Below are positions 46,488 to 63,475 of a DNA stretch of 64,000 nucleotides, piece by piece. The notes under the pieces are model-generated. The model saw nothing but the letters and a program-made list of their open reading frames with translations, made no database searches and was not told where the DNA came from. Position numbers and translations under genes: made by a program. The first letter of the stretch is position 1; the number at the start of each line of letters is the position of its first letter. Location of the stretch: assembly GCF_056746865.1 (NCBI RefSeq), contig NZ_CM163382.1; one strand, written 5' to 3'.

Positions 46488-47543
46488 ATGACGACATTTA
46501 TTCAGCTTCATTTGTTAACCGCTTACCCTGCTGCCAACCTTAACCGTGATGACACCGGTGCGCCAAAAACTGTGGTACTGGGTGGAGCAACGCGTCTGCG
46601 CGTTTCCTCACAAAGTCTGAAACGTGCGTGGCGCACTTCTGCACTTTTTGAACAGGCACTGGCGGGCCATATTGGTATTCGCAGTGGGCGTATTGCGCGT
46701 GAGGCGGCAACTATCCTGATTGAGAAAGGCATCGAAGAGAAAAAAGCCATCGAATGGGCGGCAAAAATTGCGGATTATCTTGGGAAAGCTAAAAACGACA
46801 AAAAACCAAAAGATCCGCTCACTAACGCCGAAACTGAACAGCTAGTCCATATCAGCCCGGCAGAATTTGACGCCGTAAAAGCGCTGGCCCATCAACTGGC
46901 CGAAGAAAAGCGCGCGCCAAAAGAGGAAGATCTCGCTTTGTTACGTAAAGATCGCATGGCGGTAGATATCGCTATGTTTGGTCGTATGCTGGCGAATAAA
47001 CCCGAATTTAATGTTGAAGCCGCCTGCCAGGTCGCGCATGCATTTGGTGTCAGTGAAACGATTGTCGAAGATGATTTTTTCACCGCCGTTGATGATTTGC
47101 GCCAGGCTTCTGAAGATGCCGGTGCCGGGCATCTTGGTGAAACCGGATTCGGTTCTGCGCTGTTCTACACCTATATCTGCATCGATAAAGATCTGCTGGT
47201 CGAAAACCTCGGCGGTGACGAAGCGTTAGCTAATCAGACCTTGCGCGCCTTTACGGAAGCCGCACTTAAAGTCTCCCCAACCGGCAAACAGAACAGCTTT
47301 GCCAGCCGTGCCTACGCCTCCTGGGCGCTGGCAGAAAAAGGCACTGAACAACCACGCTCTCTGGCGGCGGCTTTCTATGAACCCATTAATGGCACCCGGC
47401 AGTTAGATGTGGCGGTGCAGCGTATTACAACGCTTCGCGAAAATATGAATACGGTCTATGAACAGAAGACCGAATGCGCAAGCTTTGACGTGATGAACAA
47501 ACAGGGAAGCATGAAGGACGTGCTGGACTTTATCTGCGCGTAA
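46488..47543 (+). CDS. cas7e: Cascade backbone Cas7e (CasC/Cse4)
   Basis: 351-aa ORF; N-terminus ...LNRDDTGAPK...GGATRLRVSSQSLKRAWR parallels K-12 CasC (...LNRDDLGKPK...GGVERGRVSSQCWKRAIR). Confidence 0.9.
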   Translation: MTTFIQLHLLTAYPAANLNRDDTGAPKTVVLGGATRLRVSSQSLKRAWRTSALFEQALAGHIGIRSGRIAREAATILIEKGIEEKKAIEWAAKIADYLGKAKNDKKPKDPLTNAETEQLVHISPAEFDAVKALAHQLAEEKRAPKEEDLALLRKDRMAVDIAMFGRMLANKPEFNVEAACQVAHAFGVSETIVEDDFFTAVDDLRQASEDAGAGHLGETGFGSALFYTYICIDKDLLVENLGGDEALANQTLRAFTEAALKVSPTGKQNSFASRAYASWALAEKGTEQPRSLAAAFYEPINGTRQLDVAVQRITTLRENMNTVYEQKTECASFDVMNKQGSMKDVLDFICA

Positions 47544-47553
47544 GGGGCGGCTA

Positions 47554-47630
47554 ATGAGCCAATATTTGATTTTTCAGCTTCATGGGCCAATGGCATCCTG
47601 GGGCGTCGATGCCCCGGCGAAGGGAACAAT
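47554..47630 (+). pseudogene. cas5e: cas5e (casD) 5' fragment: only about 24 N-terminal codons retained; breakpoint approximate
   Basis: MSQYLIFQLHGPMASWGVDAPAKG parallels the Cas5e N-terminus (MRSYLILRLAGPMQAWG...); the frame then runs into unrelated low-complexity sequence and stops at 107 aa; no cas6e/cas1/cas2 follow. Confidence 0.7.
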
Positions 47631-48113
47631 ACAACATCACACAAGGCCAGTAATAGCGCGAATCCTGCGAGTTCTAAAATCAATTCTATACACATTTCTA
47701 TACACATTTATCCCTCGCTTGAGGGTTATGCGTCATCGTTATCGGCTATCTCGCTGGTGGATGATCACGGATGGCCTGATATCTACAGCCGCCTTAAAAA
47801 GCTGTACCCGACAAGCATTACTGCGTATCGGGTTCGTTCGCTCTTTCTACTCGTGGCAGATGAGTTTATCGGTGTGATTTTATCGGGCGAGGGTATTGTA
47901 TCAGGCATCCCCTTTTCTATGCAGATTTGCATAGTTCCGAATGGTGGCGTTATGGAAGCCTCCCATATCAGCATCATGCCCACCAGCGTGAAGTATTTTT
48001 TTATTTCGCGGGTGTAAAAATTTGACGAGGCGGGCGGTCCCATAAGCAATGGATTGTAGGGATTTCGCTCCCCCCCTCCTGAATGCAATTTTTCGTATAT
48101 ATATACAAAACAG

Positions 48114-48270
48114 TGCGGGTTATGCGGGTTACCGGGTTATCTTAGTATGCTAACTATTTTTTGTTCTTTAGTATCAATATGTTGCAAAATACACTGTTCA
48201 TTATTCAAGCATCACATAACCCGCAAAACATCCCAAATAACCCGCAAACGCCCCAAAATAACCCGCAAAC
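48114..48270. repeat. iteron cluster A: GCGGGTTA(T/C) direct copies (48114-48140) and three inverted copies phased at 21 bp (48216, 48237, 48258), next to an AT-rich TATATATATA tract
   Basis: read directly: cagtgcgggttatgcgggttaccgggttat ... cataacccgcaaaacatcccaaataacccgcaaacgccccaaaataacccgcaaac. Confidence 0.65.
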
Positions 48271-48878
48271 ACATTGCTGAAAGCAGGGGTTGATAGTTCC
48301 ACTGGTGCCACAGAACGGCTGAATACGGTAACTGTTGCTGGTGGTCTGTCCTGTTGTCGTTCCAGTCTCATCAAATTGAGAGGCAAGACAAAGTGCATTT
48401 TTGCACTATAGCCAAAGCCTCATAAAACAGAGTTACCCCCACAGGCTGGCAAACCATTACCCAACGCAATTAAGTGCGTCAGAATCGATTACAGCGCGTT
48501 CCTGTGGCACGTTGTTGCCGTTCTCAGCAGTGAAAGGAGAGAGTGAAAAGCGCATATCTATTACTGTTGAGGGGTGTAGCGGCATATATCGCGAATATCC
48601 ACGCCCTTAATCCCGATACCGTCACGGCGCATTGAGATCCACCAGAAGATTAAGATAGTTTTTACCTGAAATTATCCAAATAATTGTTTTAACTGATTAA
48701 TTTTTCGAATATCTATTGTTAGGGAATAAATCATCAGATACACCATAAAACGACATCTTTCAGGGTGTAGAAGATGCAAAGCCGGTACTGAAGAAAAGAC
48801 AAAGAATATGAATGGCTGGCCACACGATGGAAGGATTGTCCATTGAAGGATAAATCCCCGTGGTACAAGTTTTGGTAA

Positions 48879-48899
48879 GCCCGCAGCGCGGGCTTTTTT
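48879..48899 (+). terminator. rho-independent terminator on + strand (gcccgc-agc-gcgggc + TTTTTT)
   Basis: read directly; no convincing ORF upstream of it. Confidence 0.65.
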
Positions 48900-48971
48900 G
48901 TGGACGAAACAAAAGTCAGTGCTACATTCATTGACGCCACATCGAGGTGGCTTATAGATGGAAATTTCACA

Positions 48972-49133
48972 ATGAAAAAAGCATTTGCTGCACTGTTCGT
49001 TTTGTTGTCTCTGGTAGCTTCAACTCAGGCCTTTGCCGGTCGTTGTCAGCACGACAGCGATACTGCCGCTGACGGCTCCCGCTGCGGTGGGCGTTCTGCG
49101 GATTCCCGCCCGGGCGGCGGTGGCATTCGTTAA
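48972..49133 (+). CDS. small secreted peptide (53 aa precursor): signal peptide then ~30-aa Cys-containing, Gly-rich mature region
   Basis: ATG at 48972 inside ORF 48900..49133; MKKAFAALFVLLSLVASTQAFA | GRCQHDSDTAADGSRCGGRSADSRPGGGGIR; followed by a hairpin terminator. Confidence 0.45.
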   Translation: MKKAFAALFVLLSLVASTQAFAGRCQHDSDTAADGSRCGGRSADSRPGGGGIR

Positions 49134-49136
49134 AAA

Positions 49137-49156
49137 CAAGGCCGCGAAAGCGGCCT
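49137..49156. terminator. bidirectional hairpin terminator (aggccgc-gaaa-gcggcct) between convergent small-peptide gene and cargo operon
   Basis: perfect 7-bp stem; T-tracts on both strands. Confidence 0.7.
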
Positions 49157-49162
49157 GTTTGA

Positions 49163-50014
49163 TCACTGTGCAGTTTTCGCTGATCGATTTTCAGCTCTAA
49201 ATTCAAGAACCGTTTCAATATTTCTTTCCTTCAGCATATCAATAACATTTTTATTCATTTGACTATCACTGGTTAATAACTGGTAAACGTTGCTTCTCTC
49301 TTTATCAGAATTTTCTTTAACAGCTGCTTTGCATGCCAAATGCTTATTGAAATTTTCTACATCGCTAGTACAGGAATTTACGGCTGCTGATGAAATATCA
49401 GACGCTGAAGAAACACCATCATCCAAACGTTTTATAGCATTTTCTATACATGAGTTAAGGGAATAAACGACAACTGAGCGATACCCTTCAGACGCACACC
49501 ATTCTAAATTTCTTGAAGGATCGAGTGGTTTTACTTCGCTGGATTGAATTAACTTGTCAAAAACTGACTTATATTCAATCTGTTTTTTATCTATAGCCCA
49601 TACTTCAGTAGCTGATTTATAATTCCCCGTATGCCTATTAACATCAAATCCATGTTTTATAAGCAAATCTGCCCATGAAAGATTTATTGATTCATTGTTA
49701 TGAGGCCATTTTCCTGTCAGAACCGCCCCCATAGACCCCATATATCCGCCATATGATGGTATAGCACCATGGCTCAGTAACTTCTCAGCAACCACAGGGC
49801 AATTAATTACATAAGAGGCGTAAAGCCCATTCCATAAAGCCCCTCTATAGTAATCGCCACGATTAGGTTCTTTTAAGTCGATAGCCTTTGATAATTGTTC
49901 ACACGTTTTGCATGCATCAAAGTTATCCTTATTGCATTGCAATGAACTGGCGGCTGTAGGATTTACAGAGACTATTGAAAGCACTATGCCAAAAAACAAA
50001 TTTATTTTTTTCAT
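49163..50014 (-). CDS. secreted Cys-rich protein of unknown function (283 aa), last gene of cargo operon
   Basis: N-terminal signal peptide (MKKINLFFGIVLSIVSVNPTAA); 8 Cys; strongly AT-rich codon usage; ATG one base after upstream stop (TAGGATG). Confidence 0.7.
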   Translation of the reverse strand: MKKINLFFGIVLSIVSVNPTAASSLQCNKDNFDACKTCEQLSKAIDLKEPNRGDYYRGALWNGLYASYVINCPVVAEKLLSHGAIPSYGGYMGSMGAVLTGKWPHNNESINLSWADLLIKHGFDVNRHTGNYKSATEVWAIDKKQIEYKSVFDKLIQSSEVKPLDPSRNLEWCASEGYRSVVVYSLNSCIENAIKRLDDGVSSASDISSAAVNSCTSDVENFNKHLACKAAVKENSDKERSNVYQLLTSDSQMNKNVIDMLKERNIETVLEFRAENRSAKTAQ

Positions 50015-50015
50015 C

Positions 50016-53000
50016 CTATTTCATCTGCTCTTCAACTTTATTTAGTAATGGTGATATCGCCCACAGATTCTGAAAAGGTAGCATTTTACGGACAGCGTGG
50101 GTTTGCTGGCTGTCAAATTCTCCGTTAAGTACACCATTTGCAACCGTCGCGGCATCACCGCCAAGATCAAAGGTAGGACCAAGTAAAGCACCAATAGCAT
50201 TACGACTCTGAAACCTTGATACCGGAGGCGCACCAAACATCGCGCCAAGACCAAACCTACCGCCGCTTATGTTCTCAACGGTATTCAGCGGCTCAGAGAG
50301 CCAGCCAAGCATTCCGCCCCGGTCGATCCCCTCTTTCACAAGGTTATTCCAGCTGTAGTCGATATCGCGACCGCTTAACTTCTGTTTCATCATATAGACC
50401 ATTGAGCCAAGCGCAATCGTGCCAAGCGCACCAAGATAGAATGAAGCATCGCCCTGCTGGATACCAGATACCAACACCCTGTTATGCTGTGCGAAGATAA
50501 ACGTTTTGAACTGCGTGATCATCTTCCAGCCTTCTTTACTAAAAAACAGCGGTGTATCACCTACGCCAGGCGTTACAATCACTGAGTCTACATCTTTCAG
50601 CACTGCAGACTGGAAAATCTCTCTAGCGAAACGGTCATCCCACAGATGACTATGCCCGGTTAACAGCCCGTCCATATCCTCTCCGTGCTTCCCGAATTGC
50701 TCCCCGATTCGGCGCAGAACATCTTCATTGATGCCGACCTGTGCCATCTTCCGCATTTCACTTTTGGCGAGCGTGCCACCAGCAGAAACCTGGCGAGCCG
50801 CGTCAAGTATCCTCGACTGCACTATCATCCCGGACCATGATTTAAGTGCGCTGTTCCACTGATTCATCAGCGTCCAGTTACCGAATTTCTGCGTCATCCA
50901 GTTCAGGCCTCGCTCAGCGGCGCTTCTCCGGCTATAGGGGTCAGTAAGATCCGCTATAGCCTTTGTACGCGTAGACAGGACATAATCAAGCCCAACGGCC
51001 ATTTCTCGCAAATCCCTGGTTGCAATTTTCACTGAGTCCATATTTTTAAGCATGCTTACCATTGGTCCGAGAGATTTTCTCAGGCCATGCTGCATCATCG
51101 GTCGCATCAGATCAGTTGCAGCGGAGACGGTCATTCCACCAAGCAAACGGAGGAAGTTAATATTCCTAGCAACTCGCCCGGCACGAACAAAGAAACTGCG
51201 TGGATCTTGAGGTGCGCCGTAAGTACCAAGCAGTCGGTCACGCATAGCCGTAATATCCCTAATATCAGCCTCCCGTTGCTTCTCAAGAGCTGCACGTCGT
51301 TTAGGTGTTTTAGCCTCTTTTATTAGCCGGGTATATTCCTCACTAACCTGACGGATTTGCTCCCCCATATCTTTACGGCCAAACTGCGCAGTCAGCTCAA
51401 TTTCTGGTGCCACCTGCCGGAGATAACTTTCCATGATGTAGTTAACATCTGATTCAAGAAAATCTTCTATACGCTCATCAGGAATAAGCAGCGTTCGGCT
51501 TTTAGTGAAACCAGCCCGACCAACGAGTCTCTCTGGGATAATATCGGCTGGTACAAGCCCGGAAGGTGCGCCTATTATTTTATTCACGATCTCGTCAGCA
51601 GCGTCCTCTGCTTCCTCTCGGGATAGAGGCTCCATCTGCTTCAGTGCTCGCTCGCGGCTTGCATTCAGCCTTGTGGTTGAATTTGCCCGTTTTTGCAGTC
51701 GGCGAAGCTCAGAACGATATTTCCGTGGATTATCCAGCAACTCCATATGGCGCTGATAGACAGGAAGCTCACTCTTTGCCTGCGCTATATCATCAAGGCG
51801 TGTTTTAAGGTCAGAGCTTTCTTTCATCATTCTTGCCTGAAGTTTTTCTGATGAAGTCTCGGCCAACTCTTTTTCTATTCTTGTAAGACGCGCCTGTGTG
51901 TCAGTCTCCTGAGATATAAGCTTATTTCGTTTATCCAGTTCTTCCATGAGTAGAATTTTTTTACCAGACCATTTCTCCGCTTCAGCGATTTCACTAGCGA
52001 GAGCATCAGCGCGCGGTGCCGATTCCTCTGCAGTTTTTAGCAATGAATTTATCCTTTCAATTCGCTGACCTGCTTTGTCAGCACCTTTGGCACTAATCCC
52101 TTGTATCCAGTTGGCAATTCGCCCTCTGAATTCAGTGCGGTCGGAAAGTATCTTATCGAACTTATAAATGCGGGGAAGATAACTTTTCGCCGTCACGACA
52201 TCGATATCCTCAGGAAGGATCCCCAGTTCCTGCATACGGGCTTTTGTGGTCTCGAAAATGGGGCGGATTCTGGCGGCTGCTTGTGAAACCTCAGGAATAT
52301 CACTCTGATCACCACGGCGCATAGCCATGCCAACAGCTTCATTGAAATCAATAAAGCTCATCCTCTTCACGCCGCGGGCGCTGACAGATTTGCTGTACTG
52401 CTGGTAAGCATCACGAGTGGCTTCCATCTGCTTATAAAGCATGGCGTCGTATTGCTTAATCTTAGTCTCGACTGCCGTAAACGTAGCCAACCCCTCATCA
52501 TTTTTGGCGAAGAAATAGTTATTTTCGGCAAGCTGCTGGTTAATCTGACGGGAGACAAGAGATGGTGATTGCGCCAAGCGGCCAGCAGGAGTGACACTCA
52601 ACGTTTTGTTAGCAAGTCCAAGTCCAGCGAGCTGTTCCTGATCGAGTGTGGTATTGAAAACCTGAGCTGCACCAATGCTTTGAGGAGAATCCATACCTCG
52701 CAAATGATTACCTACTGAGTTAACCACTGCCTCGCGCGCGCTAGGTCCAGCAAGTAGCTGTGCACCAGCACCAAGGATCCCACCAACGAGAGCATCAACA
52801 ACAACGTTCGATACGCTCTCCATCGGTGAGCGAGCTTCCTGAGTGGCCTGCAATGCGGCCTCTGAAGCAACACTGCCAGCAGCATTGGCTAAAGCAAAAC
52901 GTCCGGCTGTTTCTGCAATACGACCGCCACGAACGACAGCGCCGAACGGAATAAACATAGAAATCGCATTGAATGGATCTGCTAATCTCATTGCTACAGA

Positions 53001-53405
53001 AGAGACTGTACCAGCAAATCCCAAGCCTGAATTGTATTCCATGTCAGCTCTCTGCTGATCGATTCGATGTTTAATTGCCATTGTTTCTTCAGGCGAACCG
53101 GAGTTGATAAACGAATCTGCAAAATCTTCATAGCCTTTAATATCTGCTGCATCGTTATCAAATGGGTTATATCCTTCAATCCTGTCAAACTGACTGAAAG
53201 GAGCACTGGCAATAAAGCTACCCAGCGTGTTATCTATACGAAATGCTGCTTGTCTAGACCTTTGAACGCGTTGATCACTGGTAAATGGGTTCACAGCAGA
53301 AAGCAAAGAAGGTGTTTCCATATAGAAATTACTGTCATCAGGTGCTGCTATTTGCTGAATATCCTCGCCAAGCAACTCTTTAGGATCCTGTTCATATATC
53401 GGCAT
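50016..53405 (-). CDS. large protein of unknown function (1129 aa), predicted alpha-helical with Gly-rich hydrophobic C-terminal region
   Basis: long uninterrupted ORF; start overlaps upstream stop (TAATG); Q/A/E/R-rich; C-terminal hydrophobic/glycine-rich segments (GALGTIALGSMVYMM, GGRFGLGAMFGAPP); no NTPase motifs seen. Confidence 0.8.
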   Translation of the reverse strand: MPIYEQDPKELLGEDIQQIAAPDDSNFYMETPSLLSAVNPFTSDQRVQRSRQAAFRIDNTLGSFIASAPFSQFDRIEGYNPFDNDAADIKGYEDFADSFINSGSPEETMAIKHRIDQQRADMEYNSGLGFAGTVSSVAMRLADPFNAISMFIPFGAVVRGGRIAETAGRFALANAAGSVASEAALQATQEARSPMESVSNVVVDALVGGILGAGAQLLAGPSAREAVVNSVGNHLRGMDSPQSIGAAQVFNTTLDQEQLAGLGLANKTLSVTPAGRLAQSPSLVSRQINQQLAENNYFFAKNDEGLATFTAVETKIKQYDAMLYKQMEATRDAYQQYSKSVSARGVKRMSFIDFNEAVGMAMRRGDQSDIPEVSQAAARIRPIFETTKARMQELGILPEDIDVVTAKSYLPRIYKFDKILSDRTEFRGRIANWIQGISAKGADKAGQRIERINSLLKTAEESAPRADALASEIAEAEKWSGKKILLMEELDKRNKLISQETDTQARLTRIEKELAETSSEKLQARMMKESSDLKTRLDDIAQAKSELPVYQRHMELLDNPRKYRSELRRLQKRANSTTRLNASRERALKQMEPLSREEAEDAADEIVNKIIGAPSGLVPADIIPERLVGRAGFTKSRTLLIPDERIEDFLESDVNYIMESYLRQVAPEIELTAQFGRKDMGEQIRQVSEEYTRLIKEAKTPKRRAALEKQREADIRDITAMRDRLLGTYGAPQDPRSFFVRAGRVARNINFLRLLGGMTVSAATDLMRPMMQHGLRKSLGPMVSMLKNMDSVKIATRDLREMAVGLDYVLSTRTKAIADLTDPYSRRSAAERGLNWMTQKFGNWTLMNQWNSALKSWSGMIVQSRILDAARQVSAGGTLAKSEMRKMAQVGINEDVLRRIGEQFGKHGEDMDGLLTGHSHLWDDRFAREIFQSAVLKDVDSVIVTPGVGDTPLFFSKEGWKMITQFKTFIFAQHNRVLVSGIQQGDASFYLGALGTIALGSMVYMMKQKLSGRDIDYSWNNLVKEGIDRGGMLGWLSEPLNTVENISGGRFGLGAMFGAPPVSRFQSRNAIGALLGPTFDLGGDAATVANGVLNGEFDSQQTHAVRKMLPFQNLWAISPLLNKVEEQMK

Positions 53406-56152
53406 TATTTGCCCCCTGCGTATATATTGCTCGGAAGGTAATTGGCTGAACCATAACCGAATGGTTTGGTCAGATCTGGAGGAGTATATCCATCTTTATT
53501 GCTGAACTGCGGCAGCGGATTGCCTTCTCTCCGCACTCTAGCCTCATCAACACGCTGTTGCTGGAACTGAATGGTTTGCCTGTACATTGGAGATGTCAGC
53601 TGATCCGGCTTGAAACGAACAGGGAGACCATTTTCTCCAATATAATTTCTCGGTTCTATCGCTCCGTTTGCGTCAGGCTGTAAAACCATAACAGCATAAC
53701 TCCTATCCCTTGCCGTAAGGCCATCAGAAACAAGTATTAAGTCCGTATCACTGCGAGGACCGCCAAAGGATTTTGATTTAAGCTCGCGTTTTTCCTGCTC
53801 CCACTGCCCCTGTATCCAGTTACCAGCACCATTATTTACTCCGTACAATGCCTCAGGTGCATACTTCATAACCTCTGCTTTGCCATTAACCGTAGAAACT
53901 CCCCAGGTGGTTCTGATCATGGCATTGGTCATTTTCTCAGCCTGTTCTGCATCGCCACCTGTCTGTACAAAGTTAGCATCGTAAATTGTCTGGTAATCTC
54001 GCTGATAGGCCGCATTTGATTTTCCTGGATCGGTAATATCCGGAGACCACGAACCAAAGGAAGTCAGACTGCTGGCGTTATTTTGTGCAGCAGTTACCCT
54101 CGCCGCGACATATTTTTTGTCTCGCATGGCAGTGGAAAGCATCTGTTTCATTCGGTCATCCTGTTGGAACACCTGACTGTAAGCCATATCAACAGCCTTA
54201 TCCTCCGGCACGCCAGCGCGGGAATAATCGTAAACCTTGCCATAAAATGCCATCGTACTTTTATCAAGTGTTGCCGCTGCCGCCGGATTATTATCGAATA
54301 ACTGACCGTAGAATTTTGCCATCGGGACAACCAGCGCAGGATCTCTTGATGTTGCTCCACTGTTAAGCATTGTTTTAACCTGAGTTGGTATCATGCCGCT
54401 TTTAGTTGTGACGGTGACCAGTGTATTGATGCTCTGCGGATCAGATATGGAAAACGAAGGCGCGATATCCTGCGCGAAATAACGGTCTACCGCTGCCTGA
54501 TTGTTTTTGTCGTTCGGGTCCAGCGGGAAGTTATTTTGCATTGAAGACACGAACCTGTTTCTTCCCTGCTGAATCTCCCACTCCCTATCCATCTCTTTAA
54601 ATTTGGCCTGCATTTTCTCCCAGCGTTGCTGGTTAGCAGCAAATCCAGGAGCATTTGGATCCTGTGGACGTAAACGTTCAAGAATGTCTTGTCGTCCTTC
54701 TGGAGTGAGGTCTTTAGCGGCACCAATGACACCTCCATATTGTATCTGCGCCTGCATATCCTTCCACTTCATAGCGCCAATGCGCGGACCATTGGCCCGG
54801 ATAAAATCGTCCTCAGAAGGTAACTTCTCAGGTTTCAATCCTTCATCAAGGGCTGAATATGCATCTTTAACTACGGTGCTAAGCTGGTCCGCATACTGCT
54901 GGCGGTACTGATTTCTCAGCTCATTAGCCTGCCTCAATGCCTGTATTTGCATTTGAGGGCTCATAGCATCAAATGCCGCATTGCCCGTATAACGCTTAGG
55001 TGAATCAAGGTTAGTTAGACCAAGGGCTGCCGAGATACCAGTTTCAAGCTGTTCGGTGCTATAAGGCATACTGCCATTTTCGTGTTTAATAATCCCAGCA
55101 CATAAAGCAGCTAGTGTCTTTGGGTTAGAGATATCAAGCTGATCATTCTCCCCAACACCAAGCTCACCACACAATGCCCTAATATAAGCATCAGTATTAT
55201 TACCATCACTAGCCGGAGCATAGCGATTAACAATCTCGCTAACGGTGTCATAGCCTTGACGCTGGTAAGACAACATATTTTTACCCAACGCGCGGATTCC
55301 ATGCTCAGGGGTAGCAAACGTTGCAAAACGTCCATCGCTACCGATCTGACCTTCCCACGGGTTAGATTTGCTCGCTTCAATATTACCAGGGTTATTATTA
55401 CGTAAACCACGAGCATCCAATGAATTACCATGTGATATTGCACGACTCACACCATCAAGATCCCCTGGCTCTCCATTAACCTGAAGAAACTCGTTGTATT
55501 TTTGAGCGATATTTCCTATCCATGCTTGCTGCCCCATTTGTTCCTTGAGCTGAGTTTTCTGCTGAACACGCCACTCATCAGGAAGCCCATGCGCATCAGC
55601 GTATTGATCAATAGATTCAAATCGCTGCTTGGCTAAATCGACAAATGCTTGGTTATAGCTATATAGCCCCGCAGACTGAGTGACAGCCAATGCATTTCCT
55701 GACAAATACGTTTGATCTTGGAATTGCTGAAACTGCCCAACTTCATATCGACGTGCCTGATTGTAATAAGACTGCATAGACTGCTGGAGTTGAAAGGATA
55801 ATTTATTCCTTTCCTCACTTTCAGGGATTGAGCCTAATAATGCCTGAGCCCTTTCCTGCATATTTTTCATAACAGCGTCACTCTGACCAAGAGCGTTTTT
55901 ACCCTGTTTAGAAATCAGCCCATTTTCAGGGTTGTTAATCTGGTCATCTGCAAATTGGTTAAATTGCAGTAACGCCTCCTGGGCCATAGCAACATTCGCT
56001 TTCTGCCTGGCTTCACCATATGCCACCGCATACTGATCTGCGACATTCGCCAGCACCTGACCTGCTTGAGGAACATCGAAGGTCTGAAAACCACCGGTTT
56101 GCACACCACGACTTTGCACCTGGCGTCCGGATGTAGTAGGAACAACAAGCAT
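53405..56152 (-). CDS. large protein of unknown function (915 aa), Q/N/A-rich
   Basis: ATG at 56152 preceded by TAGGAGGT Shine-Dalgarno; contains conserved-looking block RGLRNNNPGNIEASKSNPWEGQ...; no NTPase motifs seen. Confidence 0.8.
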   Translation of the reverse strand: MLVVPTTSGRQVQSRGVQTGGFQTFDVPQAGQVLANVADQYAVAYGEARQKANVAMAQEALLQFNQFADDQINNPENGLISKQGKNALGQSDAVMKNMQERAQALLGSIPESEERNKLSFQLQQSMQSYYNQARRYEVGQFQQFQDQTYLSGNALAVTQSAGLYSYNQAFVDLAKQRFESIDQYADAHGLPDEWRVQQKTQLKEQMGQQAWIGNIAQKYNEFLQVNGEPGDLDGVSRAISHGNSLDARGLRNNNPGNIEASKSNPWEGQIGSDGRFATFATPEHGIRALGKNMLSYQRQGYDTVSEIVNRYAPASDGNNTDAYIRALCGELGVGENDQLDISNPKTLAALCAGIIKHENGSMPYSTEQLETGISAALGLTNLDSPKRYTGNAAFDAMSPQMQIQALRQANELRNQYRQQYADQLSTVVKDAYSALDEGLKPEKLPSEDDFIRANGPRIGAMKWKDMQAQIQYGGVIGAAKDLTPEGRQDILERLRPQDPNAPGFAANQQRWEKMQAKFKEMDREWEIQQGRNRFVSSMQNNFPLDPNDKNNQAAVDRYFAQDIAPSFSISDPQSINTLVTVTTKSGMIPTQVKTMLNSGATSRDPALVVPMAKFYGQLFDNNPAAAATLDKSTMAFYGKVYDYSRAGVPEDKAVDMAYSQVFQQDDRMKQMLSTAMRDKKYVAARVTAAQNNASSLTSFGSWSPDITDPGKSNAAYQRDYQTIYDANFVQTGGDAEQAEKMTNAMIRTTWGVSTVNGKAEVMKYAPEALYGVNNGAGNWIQGQWEQEKRELKSKSFGGPRSDTDLILVSDGLTARDRSYAVMVLQPDANGAIEPRNYIGENGLPVRFKPDQLTSPMYRQTIQFQQQRVDEARVRREGNPLPQFSNKDGYTPPDLTKPFGYGSANYLPSNIYAGGK

Positions 56153-56248
56153 CAGTAACCTCCTATTTTGAATCGGGAGTCAGAATTCATAAAACCTGAG
56201 TTAGATAACATTGGCGTCCCTCTGCTTTGATGCTGTACCAGCGATTCA

Positions 56249-56455
56249 TTACTCACCCCCCGATGCAAAACCATTCTGATTAAGCCAGGCGTTTACGGCA
56301 TGTCTGACAATCTGCGCCACGCCTGGTAATGGCTGATCAGGGTGATTGTTCACATGGTCGATTCTGTACTGCTTAAGGCGCATCACGGTCTGTGCATCCA
56401 GATGAACGGAACCACCTCTGACATCGCCTGTGTTCAGGTCGTTAATACAATTCAC
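56249..56455 (-). CDS. small protein of unknown function (68 aa), first gene of cargo operon, GTG start
   Basis: GTG start preceded by AAGAGGAAA Shine-Dalgarno at optimal spacing; AT-rich putative promoter region upstream (56456-56554). Confidence 0.55.
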   Translation of the reverse strand: MNCINDLNTGDVRGGSVHLDAQTVMRLKQYRIDHVNNHPDQPLPGVAQIVRHAVNAWLNQNGFASGGE

Positions 56456-56554
56456 AGCAATTTCCTCTTACTGACTAAACTATGCACATTATTGATCTGA
56501 AAAAGTGGTAGATAAACATATTTCTATCACAAAAACAGATTAATTGATTTCAGC

Positions 56555-56580
56555 CAAAAAAAAGCCGGATTGCTCCGGCT
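56555..56580 (-). terminator. rho-independent terminator on minus strand (agccgga-ttgc-tccggct with A-run on + strand)
   Basis: read directly; separates the IS200/IS605 element from the cargo-operon promoter. Confidence 0.6.
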
Positions 56581-56785
56581 CTGTGCTTACTTCTGGTAGT
56601 TACGCCATACTGATTTCCCGATCCCATCTATCCCCATTTCTTTTTCAGTGCGTTTAAGCGACCGTTTCAGGTCTTCTAAATTATCCGGTTGCTTCGGTGG
56701 CCTCTGTGCCTTCCTGGAACATTCCAGTCGTCGCATTGATATTTGACATCCTCCACGCCCTGAAGGACGTGGATTCCTGCTACGT

Positions 56786-57994
56786 TCAGGCTGTCGCCTG
56801 AATCATTTCGGTGGGTTCCTGCTTCAACGGGCGGCCTGACTGCACCATCCCTCCACAGGCAAGAACGGCGTGCCCCGCCGCTAAAATGTTACGAGCGCCG
56901 TTTACATCGGCGTTCGCTGTATATCCACATACCTGGCATCTGAATTGACTTTGTGACAGGCGATTTTCTTTCGCTGTATGACCACAGCACGCGCAACGCT
57001 GGCTTGTGTACGCTGGCGGAACAGCAAGCACCTGACCGCCACACCAGAGCTGCTTGTACTCAAGCTGACGGCGCATTTCATACCAGCCCTGATCCAGTAT
57101 CGAACGGTTTAAACCTGATTTTGCCCGGACATTGCGCCCCGGCTGGCTGACCGTACCCGAGGCTGACTTTGACATGTTGCTGACCTTCAAATCCTCAATG
57201 ACTATCATTGCGTGGTTTTTGCTGATGGTCGTTGTGACTTTGTGAAGGTAGTCCCTGCGGATATTTGCGATACGGGAATGCAGTCGCTGTATTTTGCGTT
57301 TCTGCTTCTGCCAGTTGTTGCTGAATTTAACCTTGCGGCTTAACTGGCGCTGAAGTCTCGCCAGCTTCTTCTGGTTTTTATGAAAACTGTTTACAGGCTC
57401 AAAGACCGTGCCATCTGACAGCGTGGCGAGTTTAGCCACGCCAGCATCCAGCCCGACCATTAATGCTGAAGGGTGAACCGGAGTTGATACTTCACTTTCT
57501 GTCTGAATACTGATGTACCACTTACCGCAGGACTGGCTGACAGTGACATTTTTCACAACACCCGTGACCTGACGGCTGTTCCGGTAGCGCATCCAGCCCA
57601 GTTTCGGCAGAAAAATACGGCTGTTTTCCTGATCGAGCTTAACACCCTGCGGATAGCGGAATGCATCATGCTGTCCCCGCTTTTTGAATCGGGGAAAAGC
57701 GGCACGCTTCTGAAAGAAATTTTTGTAGGCTCGCTCAAGGTCTTTCAGTGACTGCTGCAATGGCTGTGAGGGAGAATCTTTAAGCCATTGCGTTTCAGTA
57801 GCATTTTTCCATTCAACCAGCCAGGAAGTCATCTTTGCATAAGAAATATATTTGTTCCCGGCCTCATGATTCTCATTCTGAAGCGCCAGAGCACGATTGA
57901 AAACGAAACGACATGCGCCCGCGAAGCGCCTCATTTCACGCTCCTGTTTTCCATTTGGTCTTAACTGGAATTTGAAAGCTTGTAGTCGTTTCAT
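56786..57994 (-). CDS. tnpB: TnpB (OrfB), RuvC-like RNA-guided nuclease of IS200/IS605 elements
   Basis: 402-aa ORF; C-terminal zinc-finger cysteines (CACCGH...CQVCGY) and RuvC-like blocks. Confidence 0.85.
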
Positions 57995-58016
57995 ATGCCA
58001 AATTATACTTTGGCCT

Positions 58017-58433
58017 ATGAAAAAAGAAACCGATATCCGACGTGGAAGGCACTGTGTCTTCCTGATGCACGTTCACCTGGTCTTTGTTACCAAGTACCGA
58101 CGCCAGATTTTTGACCATGACGCAATAGAAAAACTACGCACTTACTTTTCAAGTGTATGTGCTGATTTTGAAGCTGAACTGGTTGAAATGGATGGAGAAC
58201 GAGATCACGTTCACCTGCTAATTAACTATCCTCCCAAATTGGCGATATCCACCCTGGTGAACAGTCTCAAGGGCGTATCGAGTAGATTATTGCGACGAGA
58301 TCGACCAGATATTGCAGTCAGGTATTACTACAAAGGCGTTTTATGGAGTCCCAGCTATTTTGCCAGTAGCTGCGGAGGTGCGCCAATATCCATCATCCGC
58401 CAATACATTGAACAACAGCAAACACCTAGTTAG
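58017..58433 (+). CDS. tnpA: IS200/IS605 TnpA, Y1 HuH transposase
   Basis: ORF 57897..58433; preferred ATG at 58017 (MKKETDIRRGRH...); HuH motifs (HVHLVF, HVHLLI) and C-terminal catalytic Tyr region (RQYIEQQ). Confidence 0.85.
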   Translation: MKKETDIRRGRHCVFLMHVHLVFVTKYRRQIFDHDAIEKLRTYFSSVCADFEAELVEMDGERDHVHLLINYPPKLAISTLVNSLKGVSSRLLRRDRPDIAVRYYYKGVLWSPSYFASSCGGAPISIIRQYIEQQQTPS

Positions 58434-58516
58434 GTGGAAAACCGCGCCTTATATCCCCGACCTGAAGGACGGGGCTTTACGGCGCACTGGGTAATTACTC
58501 TGTTCGCTGTTGTGAA

Positions 58517-58942
58517 TTAAAACGGTATCCCGTCCCCGTACGGATCATCGTGCTGGCCTGTCTGTTGCTTTGCCCTGTTCAGTGCATCAGTAGCCTGCCC
58601 CTGCTGGCCTTTTTTGCCGCCCGGTCGCGCCGTTCGCGCACTGATTACGCTGTCTGCGATAACCTGCCATCCCTGCCTCGTTTCGCCGTTCTGGCCCGTC
58701 CACCAGCTCACCTGCATGTTACCGGCCACGCTCACCAGTTCGCCTTTGTGGTGTTTTGCCAGTGCGTCAGCCTGTCTGCCAAACGCCAGGACGGATAACC
58801 ACATCGTCGCCGTTCCGTCATCTGTCTGATTGCATGGAAGGGGGACCGCCATACTCGCCATCGCCATTTGTGTGCCCTTGCTGGTGGTCTTTAACTGCGG
58901 GTCAGCCACCAGCCGCCCGTAAGCTGATATTTGCGCCGTCAT
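58517..58942 (-). CDS. ssb: single-stranded DNA-binding protein (SSB-like), 141 aa
   Basis: OB-fold-like sequence and C-terminal acidic tip ending ...DDPYGDGIPF (compare E. coli SSB ...DDDIPF). Confidence 0.75.
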   Translation of the reverse strand: MTAQISAYGRLVADPQLKTTSKGTQMAMASMAVPLPCNQTDDGTATMWLSVLAFGRQADALAKHHKGELVSVAGNMQVSWWTGQNGETRQGWQVIADSVISARTARPGGKKGQQGQATDALNRAKQQTGQHDDPYGDGIPF

Positions 58943-59001
58943 GCTGTTTGTTCTCCGGTTTTAACGTGATAGTTACGCTTGTTTACACTCTTACAGTGAA
59001 A

Positions 59002-59129
59002 TTTTGCGGGTTACAATCGCACATTTGCGGGTTATAACTGCCGTTTTGCGGGTTACGTGCGGGTTATTAATTTCCTTTTTAATCATTCAGTTAATTAACT
59101 TATGCACAGGATAACCCGCATAACCCGCA
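59002..59129. repeat. iteron cluster B: four direct copies of TTTGCGGGTTA(C/T) plus two inverted copies (ATAACCCGCA), immediately 3' of the primase-helicase gene
   Basis: read directly: ttttgcgggttac ... tttgcgggttat ... tttgcgggttac gtgcgggttat ... ataacccgcataacccgca. Confidence 0.7.
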
Positions 59130-59152
59130 ACTTTTTACCTCACACAGGGAAG

Positions 59153-61279
59153 TTAATCTTCTGCTTCAGGCTGGAACATCAGCACGTAAAAAATATGTTG
59201 CTTCCCGCCAATCCTGCCGAGCGCCTTTTTCTTGTAACGGCGGTCGCCTCCCGCTTCCAGCATTCCGGCTGCACTCAACGCGCGGGCAAAGTGAGACGGA
59301 TTAAATCCCTGTGCTATCTCACCCTCAAACACATGCGGGAACGTGTAAAAACGGAACTCGTCATCTTCGTTTCTGATACTCCCCTTTCTGTATCCGGCAA
59401 GGTCTTTAATCGGTAAATCACGCTCGTCGCTGTTTGGATAGGGAAGGTATCGACTGAACCCGAACGACGACAAAAACGCCTCAGCCTGTTCAACCATCTG
59501 TTTAAACTCCCTGTTCCCCGTGCCGAACTCCTTCACCCAGGCATTAAAATTATGCTGAATGGCATCGCGGCATTCCTGCTCATCCCAGCCAGTAACATGA
59601 CCGGAAAGTACAAGCGCGGCCTCCAGTATGGCGAATCGTTCCCCCACACGGTGAACCTGTTCGCCGTAGCTCTCCGGTATCAGGTTGCGCCACCGCTCGC
59701 GACATGCCCTTACCGCGTCCTTTGCCTCCTGCTGGTGTTCTGCCAGCCATTTAACCCACTCACGACCTGCCGCCCCGTGATTTTCTGTCCAGGCATCTTT
59801 TAACGCGTCTGCGTGCGCCTTTCCGGTGCTGTATTCGTGAAACTGCGAGGCCTTTTCCATCGGCACGTTAAGCAGACGGACAAGCTGCCCCGCTTTAATT
59901 TTTATCCCTTCCGTTTTGAGGAATGTTTCAACGTCCATTTCTCCGGTGCTGATTGCCACCGTGCGCCAGTGTTTTATCTCCCTGTTGCCGCCGTCCTTCG
60001 CCCCCTGTAATTTCCCCGAACCGTTAAACAGCGTATAGGCTGACGTGGACACCTCCCGCGCGTTTCCGGCCTGGCCTATTTCATCCAGGGGTAACAGCCC
60101 GTCATTATGTGCTTCGGCCTCGTTGGCGATACCTAACGCCGTTCCGTACCAGGTCAGCCGTTGCGCGTCCGGCTCTCCCCATAAACTTGATGCAATGTTC
60201 TGTGTGGTGGTTTTACCTGCTGATGATTGCTCAAAAAGATGAACCCCGAAGCCGTCAGCACCCACCAGCCCGATTAATGGTGCAGATAGCGATACCGCCA
60301 CACCCAGCATCATGGACGGATTACCACCAGCCAGCCGTGCCACGGTATCGCGCCAGCCCTCCGCTGTTCCCGCCACGGAATAGCCATTAACAGCGGCAGT
60401 TTTTCCGGTAAACAGGATGGGTTTCTCTGATTCACCGATGATCGAACCATCCGGCATGATGTACGCACCAAAATGCCACCCCGTTGTTGTGCTTAACTGC
60501 CATTCCTCATGGTTTCCGCTTAACTGCATCCAGTCAGCCAGGATAGCCCTGTATTTGCCGTTGGTCGTCACGTTAAGGCCGTGGTCTTTCAGCAACCGCC
60601 AGCCGTCACGGTCACCAATGCCTCCGCACGGGACCGCCATTGTAATGACCTCATGGTTTGCTGGTTTTTTCCAGCGCATCACGCGGTAATGCTCTTTGCC
60701 GATTGTTCCTGTTCCCAGTAGTTCAAGCGGAGAACATAACCACGTCTCAGGCCGGATAATTTCGCCTGACTGCTTGTCCACTTTGGGCGTTACCCAGAAA
60801 ACACCATCGACGCGACTTTCAACACGAGGCTTTAATTCGTCATCATAATTTCCGGTGAAATTTGTCTTCGCCGGAAGGTTGATCACCAGACTGTTACCGC
60901 GTTCCGCATCATACTTCAGTCCAGCCATGCGCGGAGTCCAGTCCTCCGGCTGCTGATCAACAAAGCTGCGGTAGCAACGCGCCTCCTTCACACCCGCCAC
61001 TGCAAGCAGTGTCGCTATCTGTGTAAGGTGCTGCTCTGATATTTCACCAGCACGATAAATGCGCACGTAATAGCGTCCTTTGTCGATGATTTGCGTGTCT
61101 GCCAGACTCGCCAGTTGTTCCGGTCCAAGAATAACTGGATGTGTATCATCTGCCGCAATATGCTTTCCGGCCCATTCGCTCCACTCTTTCGCATGTGCCC
61201 AGGCATCACTACCCGCAAAGATAATCACCTCCGTCATTTTGTCTTTCGGCTGGTGCTTTAAATTCGGTGCGCGTTTCAT
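59153..61279 (-). CDS. replication primase-helicase (P4 alpha-like)
   Basis: 708-aa ORF; helicase Walker A-like (SSAGKTT) and Walker B-like (LLPLDEI) blocks; adjacent iterons; typical of satellite/island replication modules. Confidence 0.8.
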   Translation of the reverse strand: MKRAPNLKHQPKDKMTEVIIFAGSDAWAHAKEWSEWAGKHIAADDTHPVILGPEQLASLADTQIIDKGRYYVRIYRAGEISEQHLTQIATLLAVAGVKEARCYRSFVDQQPEDWTPRMAGLKYDAERGNSLVINLPAKTNFTGNYDDELKPRVESRVDGVFWVTPKVDKQSGEIIRPETWLCSPLELLGTGTIGKEHYRVMRWKKPANHEVITMAVPCGGIGDRDGWRLLKDHGLNVTTNGKYRAILADWMQLSGNHEEWQLSTTTGWHFGAYIMPDGSIIGESEKPILFTGKTAAVNGYSVAGTAEGWRDTVARLAGGNPSMMLGVAVSLSAPLIGLVGADGFGVHLFEQSSAGKTTTQNIASSLWGEPDAQRLTWYGTALGIANEAEAHNDGLLPLDEIGQAGNAREVSTSAYTLFNGSGKLQGAKDGGNREIKHWRTVAISTGEMDVETFLKTEGIKIKAGQLVRLLNVPMEKASQFHEYSTGKAHADALKDAWTENHGAAGREWVKWLAEHQQEAKDAVRACRERWRNLIPESYGEQVHRVGERFAILEAALVLSGHVTGWDEQECRDAIQHNFNAWVKEFGTGNREFKQMVEQAEAFLSSFGFSRYLPYPNSDERDLPIKDLAGYRKGSIRNEDDEFRFYTFPHVFEGEIAQGFNPSHFARALSAAGMLEAGGDRRYKKKALGRIGGKQHIFYVLMFQPEAED

Positions 61280-61580: not shown

Positions 61581-61838
61581 TTATTTCCCGGTGTGAGGTT
61601 CTTCTTTATATTTATGGGCTAACAAATCTGGTAATTGCCTGTATTTATCCTCGGCAATATATTCAGAATAATCGACAGCACTGTTCAGTATATCTAACGC
61701 CGTTTCATGCTCCAGATTCGAAACTATAAGGAACGTTGCTACTTTTAGCATATTCGCGATATGCAAAAGAGCATCAATTTCATTTTTTGGCGCTTCACTG
61801 AATTTTTGCTCCAGAAGAATAAATCGTTCATCACGCAT
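61581..61838 (-). CDS. hypothetical protein (85 aa)
   Basis: ATG start; 2-bp gap to next gene. Confidence 0.55.
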   Translation of the reverse strand: MRDERFILLEQKFSEAPKNEIDALLHIANMLKVATFLIVSNLEHETALDILNSAVDYSEYIAEDKYRQLPDLLAHKYKEEPHTGK

Positions 61839-62034
61839 AGTATTCCCCCTGACGGATGCGGGCAGTAAATACCATCACGCAGCCAGCCGGGGATTGCTGG
61901 CGTGCTTCCTGTTCGCTGGTGGCCACGATGGTAATCACACGCGGTTTTGCGGCGCTCAGGGCGATAAAACGCCAGGCGAATTTATTCAGGTTGTGCGAAT
62001 CCCGCCCTTGCGGGTGTATGGTATGATTTCTCAT
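61831..62034 (-). CDS. hypothetical protein (67 aa), likely first gene of the replication operon
   Basis: internal ATG at 62034 of the 415-aa ORF 61831..63078; stop overlaps next start (ATGCGTGA); the upstream 348 codons overlap the operator and the Arc-like gene and are unlikely to be real. Confidence 0.4.
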   Translation of the reverse strand: MRNHTIHPQGRDSHNLNKFAWRFIALSAAKPRVITIVATSEQEARQQSPAGCVMVFTARIRQGEYYA

Positions 62035-62129
62035 AGCTACCTCGATACTCTCGTTATCGTTGGTGGTTAGAAGCCCTGCGAGTGGTAACGACACTTGCGG
62101 GGCTTTGTTTTTTGTTGCACTTACTGTTA

Positions 62130-62175
62130 ATGTACGTACGTAATATTGATGATAATAGGAGTTACGTACGTACAT
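62130..62175. promoter_or_regulatory. perfect 14-bp inverted repeat ATGTACGTACGTAA (18-bp spacer), putative operator
   Basis: half-sites 62130-62143 and 62162-62175 read directly; overlaps the start codon of the Arc-like gene and sits upstream of the divergent replication operon. Confidence 0.6.
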
Positions 62176-62365
62176 GTCAACATTAAAGCGGGATAAATCA
62201 CCACGCGGCGAGGGATGGTCGCCGACATTCCAGATACGAATTAGCAAAGAACTACGCCAGCAAGTAAACGAGGCAGCAACCGCCGATGGCCTAACCCTCG
62301 GCAATTGGTTTAAAGAATTAGCTCGTGCCGAACTAAAGCGACGCGGCATTGAACCTAAAGGCTGA
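62174..62365 (+). CDS. Arc/Mnt-like ribbon-helix-helix DNA-binding protein (63 aa)
   Basis: ...PTFQIRISKELRQQVNEAATADGLTLGNWFKELARAELKRRG resembles P22 Arc (...PQFNLRWPREVLDLVRKVAEENGRSVNSEIYQRVMESFKKEG); divergent from the minus-strand operon. Confidence 0.6.
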   Translation: MSTLKRDKSPRGEGWSPTFQIRISKELRQQVNEAATADGLTLGNWFKELARAELKRRGIEPKG

Positions 62366-62917
62366 TGTATGACTGAAAAGCAGACCGATAACAAACTTTC
62401 TCTACCAGAGAATAAACCAGCAGGCTTCTTACCAAGAAAAATCCTTGATGAGATCAAACGCCGCCAGCGGCGCAAGGCCAAAGAGCAGGAGTAACCATCA
62501 CCAGCGCCGTGGTGCGGTGAACTGTGGCGCACAGGGTTACAGGTATCTACGATGACTGACAAATCATTAAAGAAATTATCCTCATCCAGGAAAAAACAAC
62601 GCAAAAATGCGGTAAGCGAACAAGAACAGGAAAGATTTGCGCCATGTGCGTTTGTCCTTGAGAAGTTCTTAAAAGAGTACAGGCGCACAAAAATGGAATC
62701 GCATACCTGGAAAACATCGCAGTATGGCGATGCTAAAGAGCAGGAATAGCCCACCAGCAAGCCAGCACACTGATCACATTGCCCACCAGCCGCAAATCTG
62801 GCATTGTTGGCGATGCGTTTGATTTCCTTTGTTCCCACTGGCGACCTATCCCGGTCGCCTTTGTTTTGCCTGTTATCCAGCAACGGGGCGCTTTTTCTTT
62901 CTGTAACGTTCGGATCG

Positions 62918-63475
62918 TTACACATTGCTTTCACCCTCCAGAAAATCAGGCTGATATTTACGCCATAGCGCCCGCTCTTCTCGTTCCAGTGCATCTTTTG
63001 CCTCTTTGCATTGCTGTAACCTGTAACCGCGTTTGCTGGCTTCCTGTTGATATGCAGCCTGACGTTTACTGAAATCATTCAGCATGGCAAACGGAACACC
63101 ATAACCCCCCGTTTTGCGGATTGAAGGAATCACCTCGCGGAATACCCAGTTACTGAAACGGTGCGCAAATGTGCCTGGTGTGGAAGCTTTACGGCTGCGG
63201 GCGATCAGTTTGTAGAAACCTGATTCAGAGACAACATTCCAGCTTCTGGCACCACCACGCTTACCGGAATGACCCTCGGTTAAAGCTAGGGTCATTACCT
63301 CATCGTTATCCAGAACTGAAACGGCATCAGTAACATTGCTGATTTCCAGCGCGGCACACACATCAGCGCCAACAAACCACGGCTCGCCGTTGATACTCAC
63401 TATGCGCACCTGAATGTCATCGAATTTAATGACAGAGATTTCAGTGCGACCGGCATAAAAGACAGGTTTACGCAT
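62918..63475 (-). CDS. Bro-N domain protein (phage antirepressor-like)
   Basis: 185-aa ORF; Bro-N-like N-terminus (...[37 protein letters not shown]...). Confidence 0.7.

Follow-up and report, generated by a model that had tools for sequence, protein, structure and literature searches.

Why does a chromosomal island carry two clusters of one short repeat 10.7 kb apart, and what does the second of them do? The window analysed here (64,000 nucleotides of contig NZ_CM163382.1, NCBI RefSeq assembly GCF_056746865.1, with positions counted from its first letter) contains an Escherichia coli phage-inducible chromosomal island (PICI), kin to the capsid-forming PICIs (cf-PICIs), that is inserted in the 5' end of cas5e. 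The repeat is GCGGGTTA; cluster B lies beside the island's replication gene, rep, and cluster A toward its far end. The original prediction for this locus compared the pair with the ori and crr of phage P4. Our analysis favors an answer that we regard as probable, namely that this PICI combines a DUF927-type Rep with a bipartite origin, in which cluster B, hereafter module M1, is the canonical half beside rep and cluster A, hereafter module M2, is a second half separated from it and lying beside the cos site (Table 1).

Two iteron clusters and their putative reader

Exact copies of GCGGGTTA number 14 in the window, whereas 100 dinucleotide-preserving shuffles averaged 1.85 and never exceeded 5, and 11 of the 14 fall in the two clusters (5 in A, 6 in B); the other three (25666, 38352, and 40205) are dispersed in chromosomal genes, at about the number expected by chance. 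The predicted enrichment at two sites therefore holds, and the motif does not recur at similar density throughout the window. Cluster B starts 24 bp past the rep stop, immediately 3' of the 708-aa gene as had been noted, with copies on the plus strand at 59006, 59027, 59048, and 59059 (spacing 21, 21, and 11 bp), a spacer of 44 bp that is 75% AT, and a tandem pair on the minus strand at 59112 and 59121. Cluster A has tandem plus-strand copies at 48115 and 48124 with a degenerate third, cCGGGTTA, at 48132, a 75-bp spacer that is 72% AT, and minus-strand copies at 48217, 48238, and 48259, so that its AT-rich surroundings and its three inverted copies at exactly 21 bp were as first described.

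Read as its reverse complement, cluster A runs from 21-bp-phased TTTGCGGGTTA through AT-rich DNA to 9-bp tandem copies, which is the architecture of cluster B (inverted repeats I1 and I3). The two clusters are thus mirror-oriented on a common plan of 9-bp tandem copies, AT-rich spacer, and 21-bp-phased copies. Beyond the iterons they have no similarity, ruling out recent duplication of one cluster. Origins of PICIs and of Staphylococcus aureus pathogenicity islands (SaPIs) lie immediately 3' of rep and consist of opposed iteron sets around an AT-rich region (PMC6092414, PMC9371898), and both clusters have at least two opposed iterons on each AT-rich flank, four plus two in B and three plus two (three with the degenerate copy) in A. 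Autonomous replication by a rep-ori segment has been experimentally demonstrated only for EcCICFT073, SaPIs, and EfCIV583 (PMC6092414). The M1 spacer also holds a DnaA-box-like sequence, TTATGCACA, of uncertain significance; DnaA-box-like TTATNCACA is present in most GCGGGTTA-type M1 spacers and in no M2, and such a box is unexpected in the origin of a self-loading helicase.

In the Rep protein, about 135 conserved residues form an N-terminal domain, a DUF927 ATPase core follows, and the C-terminal region of about 105 aa is variable. DUF927 is its sole Pfam domain (E=1e-46), its best relative in the PDB is 8tch, a 'Pathogenicity island protein' (E=2.4e-15, residues 214-603), the helicase Cch of the staphylococcal cassette SCCmec (PDB 5dgk) follows at E=3e-3, and the protein belongs to PHROG 1139. 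These matches support a putative assignment as a helicase/initiator of the SaPI-Rep/Cch family, so that of the earlier label of primase-helicase the helicase part is supported and the primase part is not; Pfam gave no match to a primase domain. The N-terminal domain models well (predicted local distance difference test, pLDDT, 84), with a weak best fold match in the PDB to the DnaG RNA-polymerase domain 4e2k (E=0.026) and none at E<=1e-3; one relative, L008, carries Zn-ribbon and Toprim domains. As a side observation, this alpha/beta domain (window 60869-61279, Rep residues 1-137) is common to DUF927, P4-alpha-like, and EcCICFT073-type PICI Reps, which are otherwise unrelated, and stands in for the Zn-ribbon/Toprim primase of P4 alpha.

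The Reps of SaPIs are initiator-helicases that load themselves, and their C-terminal winged-helix domain reads iterons directly 3' of rep, flanking an AT-rich center (PMC9371898); two hexamers have been proposed to load at origins of the PICI and SaPI kind (PMC6092414, PMC9371898). By its pattern of sequence variation, the window Rep most likely recognizes its iteron, (T)TTGCGGGTTA, through the variable C-terminal ~105 residues.

The second module in related loci

Relatives, cited below by L numbers, were drawn from complete E. coli genomes, from one genome per species, and from IMG/VR, and iterons were located downstream of rep in each. A second module was present in 43 of the 44 loci where this could be judged. 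M1 and M2 are adjacent in 25 loci (~290 bp in all) and split in 18, the window included, at distances of 2.2 kb (L004, L010), 7.8-9.3 kb (L006-like cf-PICIs), and 10.7-11 kb (window, L001, L002). Throughout the DUF927-type loci, M1 follows the rep stop with 2-3 tandem 9-bp iterons, an AT-rich spacer, and 4 iterons at 11/21/21 bp, and M2 presents 2-3 opposed 21-bp-phased iterons, an AT-rich spacer, and three 9-bp tandem iterons. At the M1/M2 junction of adjacent-type loci the facing iterons form a hairpin-like arrangement, for example TAACCCGCA-N14-TGCGGGTTA (L007 20317-20345; L011 7558-7590); in split-type elements the additional copy on the M1 side is missing and M2 has a third copy on its side instead, a pattern that places the breakpoint at the central M1/M2 dyad.

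An M1-M2 distance that varies from 0 to 11 kb would be tolerated by looping or titration, and thus fits a negative copy-number control in which cluster A titrates Rep or 'handcuffs' the origin. Second iteron arrays titrate the initiator or handcuff the origin in plasmids P1 (incA) and F (incC), and cluster A, which lies outside the minimal origin, is likewise a further array of that origin's iterons. M2, however, keeps a two-set opposed layout, an AT-rich spacer, a site for integration host factor (IHF), and a (TA)5 tract, features for which titration has no use, and for PICIs, which replicate in a burst after induction, tight control would seem to serve no obvious need. We consider copy-number control unlikely to be what cluster A is for.

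Eight iterons were found among these elements (GCGGGTTA, GGGACAAG, TGAGGCAAC, GAGACAAC, TGGGTTAC, TGAACCAAC, GGGATAAG, and GGGACAAC), and in every element M1 and M2 use the identical one. The C-terminal ~105 aa are common to the GCGGGTTA Reps, and Reps with other iterons differ precisely there, which suggests that the iteron changes together with the Rep C-terminus and is specific to its cognate Rep. This shift of the iteron in both modules along with the Rep C-terminus argues for the earlier proposal that the clusters are putative binding arrays of the element's own Rep. The split form occurs in two specificities, GCGGGTTA (window, L001, L002, L006, and others) and GGGACAAG (L004, L010), and the (TA)5-cos flank beyond M2 is near-identical between them although the iterons differ, a combination not easily accounted for unless M2 has to fit the Rep of its own element.

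Sibling islands (L054-L084) extend this pattern, as they carry a chimeric Rep in which a window-type N-terminal domain (78% identity) continues into helicase and C-terminal parts that are P4-alpha-like (51% identity to P4 alpha 323-771, E=1e-162), and their origin 3' of rep has the iteron CTGTTCACC, which contains P4's own type-1 repeat. A P4-type iteron alongside a P4-alpha-like C-terminus again indicates that it is the C-terminal part of Rep with which the iteron changes. In L054 (3797-5900), and likewise in L055-L084, the chimeric protein is 606 aa long with its N-terminal ~138 aa as in the window Rep. In EcCICFT073, too, the region 3' of rep is bounded on either side by tandem pairs of 9-bp iterons that point in opposite directions.

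The element has been remodeled (an IS200/IS605 insertion, cargo of phage origin, a secondary integration site), and cluster A might accordingly be viewed as an inert relic of rearrangement, such as a tandem island that has decayed or a piece of the origin that was duplicated. We find this very unlikely, given that the same distal module recurs in 18 loci with two iteron specificities, that no rep remnant lies beside cluster A, and that the iterons stay intact and invariant while the spacers diverge. In 12 distinct GCGGGTTA-type M2 variants, chosen by a flanking anchor independent of the iterons, invariant columns number 46 of 48 in the iterons and 56 of 106 in the spacers (Fisher p=2.8e-8, a value that shows constraint and is not a calibrated probability, as the sequences are related). 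The M2 iterons are under purifying selection.

M2 is also a differentiated module and not a plain copy of M1. The IHF consensus WATCAANNNNTTR occurs in 20 of 26 distinct M2 spacers (0.28 in shuffles) as against 2 of 38 M1 spacers, and it holds across at least five iteron types, with its four free positions varying; L004 and L010 have it as well. Just beyond the tandem iterons, a T-tract, a G, and (TA)n follow in all 17 of 17 distinct M2 ends of both adjacent and split types. In the classical origin core, as in oriC, pSC101, and R6K gamma, two initiator arrays stand on either side of an IHF bend and are followed by DNA that melts easily. By analogy, the IHF site and (TA)5 tract of M2 read like an initiator array, bend, and unwinding element, a likeness that does not show which module fires.

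The split arrangement is linked to cos. The cos of phage phiP27 lies between HNH and terS with the core CGCCCGCCCC, for which the window counterpart is CGCCCGCCTC, and the window cos block also matches termini of Burkholderia phage genomes. This block adjoins M2 in 17 of 17 untruncated split loci. On the window island, M2 and cos lie ~500 bp from the att-distal end, which leaves accessory and late genes between M1 and M2, and the excised circle would read rep, M1, SSB, cargo, M2, cos, attP, int in one direction. Such an order could suit a role for cluster A mainly in packaging, with Rep near cos modulating terminase, or in expression, with a Rep-controlled promoter, made up of the tandem iterons and the (TA)5 tract, reading through cos and attP into int of the circle; the presence of cos beside M2 in every split locus and a (TA)n tract 20-30 bp upstream of the next start codon in adjacent-type relatives also point that way. 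In adjacent-type islands, however, a cos block beside M2 was sought and not found, and in L007 the best cos-like match falls, like the cos of phiP27, between HNH and terS; M2 is thus distant from cos in these elements, and its link to cos is not intrinsic to it. A scan for sigma-70 promoters and terminators gave no canonical promoter at the (TA)5 motif, whose (TA)n is without the -7 T of a -10 element, and we therefore gave the promoter reading less weight. Nor is the gene downstream the same from one element to the next. An Rfam scan of 47500-49000 returned nothing credible. A mainly packaging or expression role is improbable in our view.

Under the bipartite-origin reading, Rep as a self-loading initiator-helicase would bind both clusters, and M2 would take part in replication either as a second melting and helicase-loading site or as a cis partner of M1. 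The latter version might involve pairing of M1 and M2 by Rep-mediated looping, by analogy with P4 crr and ori. The distal module may serve as a second origin, a cis partner, or a copy-number control. Several points weigh against a bipartite origin. M1 alone is already a minimal origin in the SaPI model, and by that comparison M2 could be regulatory rather than replicative. L049 has M1 and no M2 within 10 kb, meaning that M2 is not indispensable everywhere, and in PICIs with another Rep at the same cas5 site (ETEC1747) the origin iterons do not recur distally. Phylogenetic relatedness among the surveyed loci, many of them near-identical, means that counts such as 43 of 44 overstate independence. 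Finally, an AlphaFold2 model of full-length Rep from a 14-sequence alignment has a pLDDT of 52.9 overall and of less than 50 in both the ATPase core and the C-terminus; the C-terminal fold is in effect unmodeled, and a winged-helix domain there is assumed from the SaPI literature.

A more ambitious version, which we hold to be doubtful though worth stating, would make M2 an obligatory cis partner, with IHF-aided Rep looping of the 10.7-kb cargo, unwinding at the (TA)5 beside cos, and the two modules doubling as homology arms for late-gene cassettes. If M2 is obligatory, the island would represent a convergent reinvention of P4 ori/crr logic in the SaPI-Rep helicase family, with replication initiation physically coupled to the packaging site. 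If the modules are homology arms, whole late-gene cassettes would be swapped between them, a capsid module in cf-PICIs and podophage ejection proteins in the window.

Among enterobacteria, PICIs and cf-PICIs are abundant carriers of horizontally transferred DNA, and accounts of their origin have so far described one short block downstream of rep; full-text literature searches on PICI, SaPI, and cf-PICI origins and iterons found no distal module in titles or abstracts. The present analysis indicates two differentiated modules that can work, or at least persist under selection, up to 11 kb apart, the separated one always beside cos. As such, these loci offer a natural experiment on the use of multiple arrays by a self-loading MCM-like initiator-helicase, be it as independent origins, through looping as in P4 ori/crr and R6K, or in copy-number control.

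The island, its cargo, and its insertion site

Table 1. Features of the PICI in the 64-kb window, in order of the argument
Feature	Coordinates	Strand	Basis
Module M1 (cluster B), canonical PICI origin	59003..59130	-	Grammar and position as in 43 related loci; published PICI/SaPI layout (PMC6092414, PMC9371898)
M1 in rep direction: 2 tandem 9-bp iterons; spacer; 4 iterons (11/21/21)	59112-59128; 59067-59110; 59006-59066	-	
DnaA-box-like TTATGCACA within M1 spacer	59100..59108	+	Same offset in most GCGGGTTA-type M1 spacers
Module M2 (cluster A)	48114..48270	-	Motif positions, inverted repeats, iteron conservation
M2 in rep direction: 3 iterons (21-bp phase); spacer; tandem 9-bp iterons, 2 exact and 1 degenerate	48217-48266; 48141-48215; 48115-48139	-	
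IHF consensus site TATCAATATGTTG in M2 spacer	48172..48184	+	Consensus match
T4G(TA)5CGA5 motif just beyond M2 tandem iterons (GTTTTGTATATATATACGAAAAA on minus strand)	48089..48111	-	Conserved at M2 ends
rep, putative 708-aa initiator-helicase	59153..61279	-	Pfam DUF927, PDB 8tch, PHROG 1139
phiP27-type cos site	47997..48079	-	84.5% identity to annotated cos of phage phiP27
cos core equivalent CGCCCGCCTC (GAGGCGGGCG on plus strand)	48027-48036	-	Compared with phiP27 core
Distal element end, att-core-like GGCGAAGGGAA fused to cas5e codon ~23	47616..47626	.	Homology breakpoints; same junction in ETEC1747 PICI
Single-stranded DNA-binding protein (SSB) gene, first after M1	58517..58942	-	Pfam SSB; same place in L001, L002, L004, L006
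IS200/IS605-family insertion	56786..58433	.	Pfam Y1_Tnp, OrfB_IS605, TNB; comparison with L001
tnpA of IS200/IS605 insertion	57897-58433	+	Pfam
tnpB of IS200/IS605 insertion (tnpB/Cas12f-like TNB protein)	56786-57994	-	Pfam
Cargo: three podophage internal-virion/ejection protein genes (283, 1129, and 915 aa)	48876..56221	-	PHROG 342, 1044, 7182

The first 47543 positions of the window are E. coli chromosome, ending in cysJIH, cas3, cse1, cse2, and cas7. The cas5e frame begins at 47554 and is replaced by island sequence at 47616-47622, where homology to intact cas5e stops (47622) and homology to the element end begins (47616). GGCGAAG(GGAA) is common to this junction and the 3' end of the tRNA-Gly gene glyU, and in strains CS5L and 2022E04-002 the same far-end sequence forms the island end at glyU; the sequence of the cas5e insertion site, CGGCGAAGGGAA (within window 47554-47626), mimics the 3' end of glyU. 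Strain ETEC1747 has a related island at the same cas5e position (L099 20305-30466), with cas5e-cas6e-cas1-cas2-CRISPR resuming on its far side, and from this identical site we conclude that the window junction is an insertion and not a deletion. An inversion between cas and glyU was considered as the source of the junction and dropped, as ETEC1747 has a bona fide insertion at the same cas5 position. The window junction was unmatched among the other complete E. coli genomes of the collection. Two further observations concern this site. The insertion splits cas3-cse1-cse2-cas7 from the remainder of the type I-E operon, and the ETEC1747 island, which is of the RepA-helicase type, has seven TTGACACTTTTT copies near its distal end (L099 21040-21330), unlike its origin iteron CCTCACTTTT.

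The identity of the element as a PICI is evident from its context, with island genes in L001 and L002 and a phiP27-type cos and att-like junction in the window. Relatives have the order int, helix-turn-helix (HTH) regulator, AntA/BRO, Icd-like, DUF4222, rep, SSB, ProQ/FinO, PerC, and cargo, in agreement with the Gram-negative PICIs of Fillol-Salom et al. (PMC6092414), and the L001 and L002 islands with this gene set sit at tRNA-Gly; the integrase of the window element falls past the window end. L006 and L007, close relatives by rep, are cf-PICIs with capsid, portal, HNH, TerS, and TerL genes. A 415-aa open reading frame (ORF) at 61831-63078 is probably an artifact of ORF finding, as its last ~80 residues alone have a match (Icd-like cell-division inhibitor); relatives annotate a 67-aa gene in its place.

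Between the modules, the IS200/IS605 insertion occupies the slot taken in relatives by ProQ/FinO, a hypothetical gene, and PerC. The three cargo genes are 99.8% identical to those of a BPP-1-like prophage that has an endosialidase tailspike (L003 12001-19342), and a defense system, which we had considered as the cargo, was set aside in view of this identity to prophage internal-virion genes. The same slot holds three different large genes in L002 (22186-29533) and a full capsid-terminase module in L006. What lies between the modules is thus the part of the island that varies, with different genes between conserved flanks in the window, L002, and L006, as the description of two clusters bracketing a cargo region had anticipated, and M1 and M2 mark the edges of a variable cassette in a way that should aid PICI annotation. 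The ejection-protein cargo is of podophage type, yet the island's cos is of the phiP27 (HNH-terminase) type.

Comparison with known replicons

The closest systems are other E. coli PICIs, EcCICFT073 and cf-PICIs such as EcCIEDL933, which share with the window int, an HTH regulator, Icd-like, DUF4222, rep, SSB, PerC, and cos, and whose origin likewise lies directly 3' of rep with iterons particular to each element on the flanks of AT-rich DNA (Fillol-Salom et al. 2018, PMC6092414). The O157:H7 island L007 even has the window's iteron, with a Rep of 83% identity. Unlike these, the window origin is made of two differentiated modules 10.7 kb apart, the second beside cos. The SaPI Rep-ori system (PMC9371898) and SCCmec Cch are alike in having a related Rep, an origin directly downstream, opposed iterons around an AT-rich center, and a C-terminal specificity domain. 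They differ in that iterons measure 8-11 nt in the window family as against 5-6 in SaPIs and fall there into distinctive spacing classes, 9-bp tandem and 21-bp phased, and the window has in addition a second module, an IHF site, a (TA)5 tract, a Gram-negative host, and a different N-terminal domain.

The likeness to P4 that was first proposed survives as a functional analogy of two loci and one initiator, and fails as homology, in the iteron, in the organization of the repeats, and in the role of the gene-proximal site. Both are satellite replicons with two iteron loci for a single initiator; several kilobases separate the loci, one of which directly follows the 3' end of the initiator gene, and each locus has iterons in both orientations, 9-bp tandem pairs included. 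Together with the sibling islands that have a P4-alpha-like Rep and P4's own iteron, this could suggest a true member of the P4 ori/crr class with an alpha-type initiator. However, the window Rep has no significant similarity to P4 alpha (BLASTP E=0.12), and alpha comprises Zn_Ribbon_Prim, Toprim_3, D5_N, DUF5906, and Pox_D5 domains as against DUF927 only. The type-1 iteron of P4 is TGTTCACC and that of the window GCGGGTTA, a difference already pointed out in the original prediction. P4 crr consists of two direct 120-bp repeats with five type-1 iterons each, 46 bp after alpha and ~200 bp from attP, whereas the window clusters are each a single module, mutually inverted, and no such pair of direct repeats is present. 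The site next to the initiator gene is crr in P4, with ori as the distal site 4.7 kb away, whereas in the window the gene-proximal site is the canonical PICI origin, 10.7 kb from its partner. The IHF consensus occurs in neither P4 ori nor crr, and no sid, delta, or psu genes were seen in this element family. Homology of the P4 type is refuted by Rep sequence, domains, iteron, and repeat organization, and we give membership in the P4 class next to no credence.

Among plasmids, distant initiator-binding repeats act through initiator-mediated looping or pairing in R6K gamma with the alpha and beta origins, in P1 incA, and in F incC. The iteron plasmids R6K, P1, and F resemble the window island in having initiator repeats distant from the core origin and IHF sites in AT-rich origin DNA. 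They are unlike it in that their winged-helix Rep recruits the host DnaB and is not self-loading, and in that their auxiliary arrays are direct repeats and not mirror-image modules.

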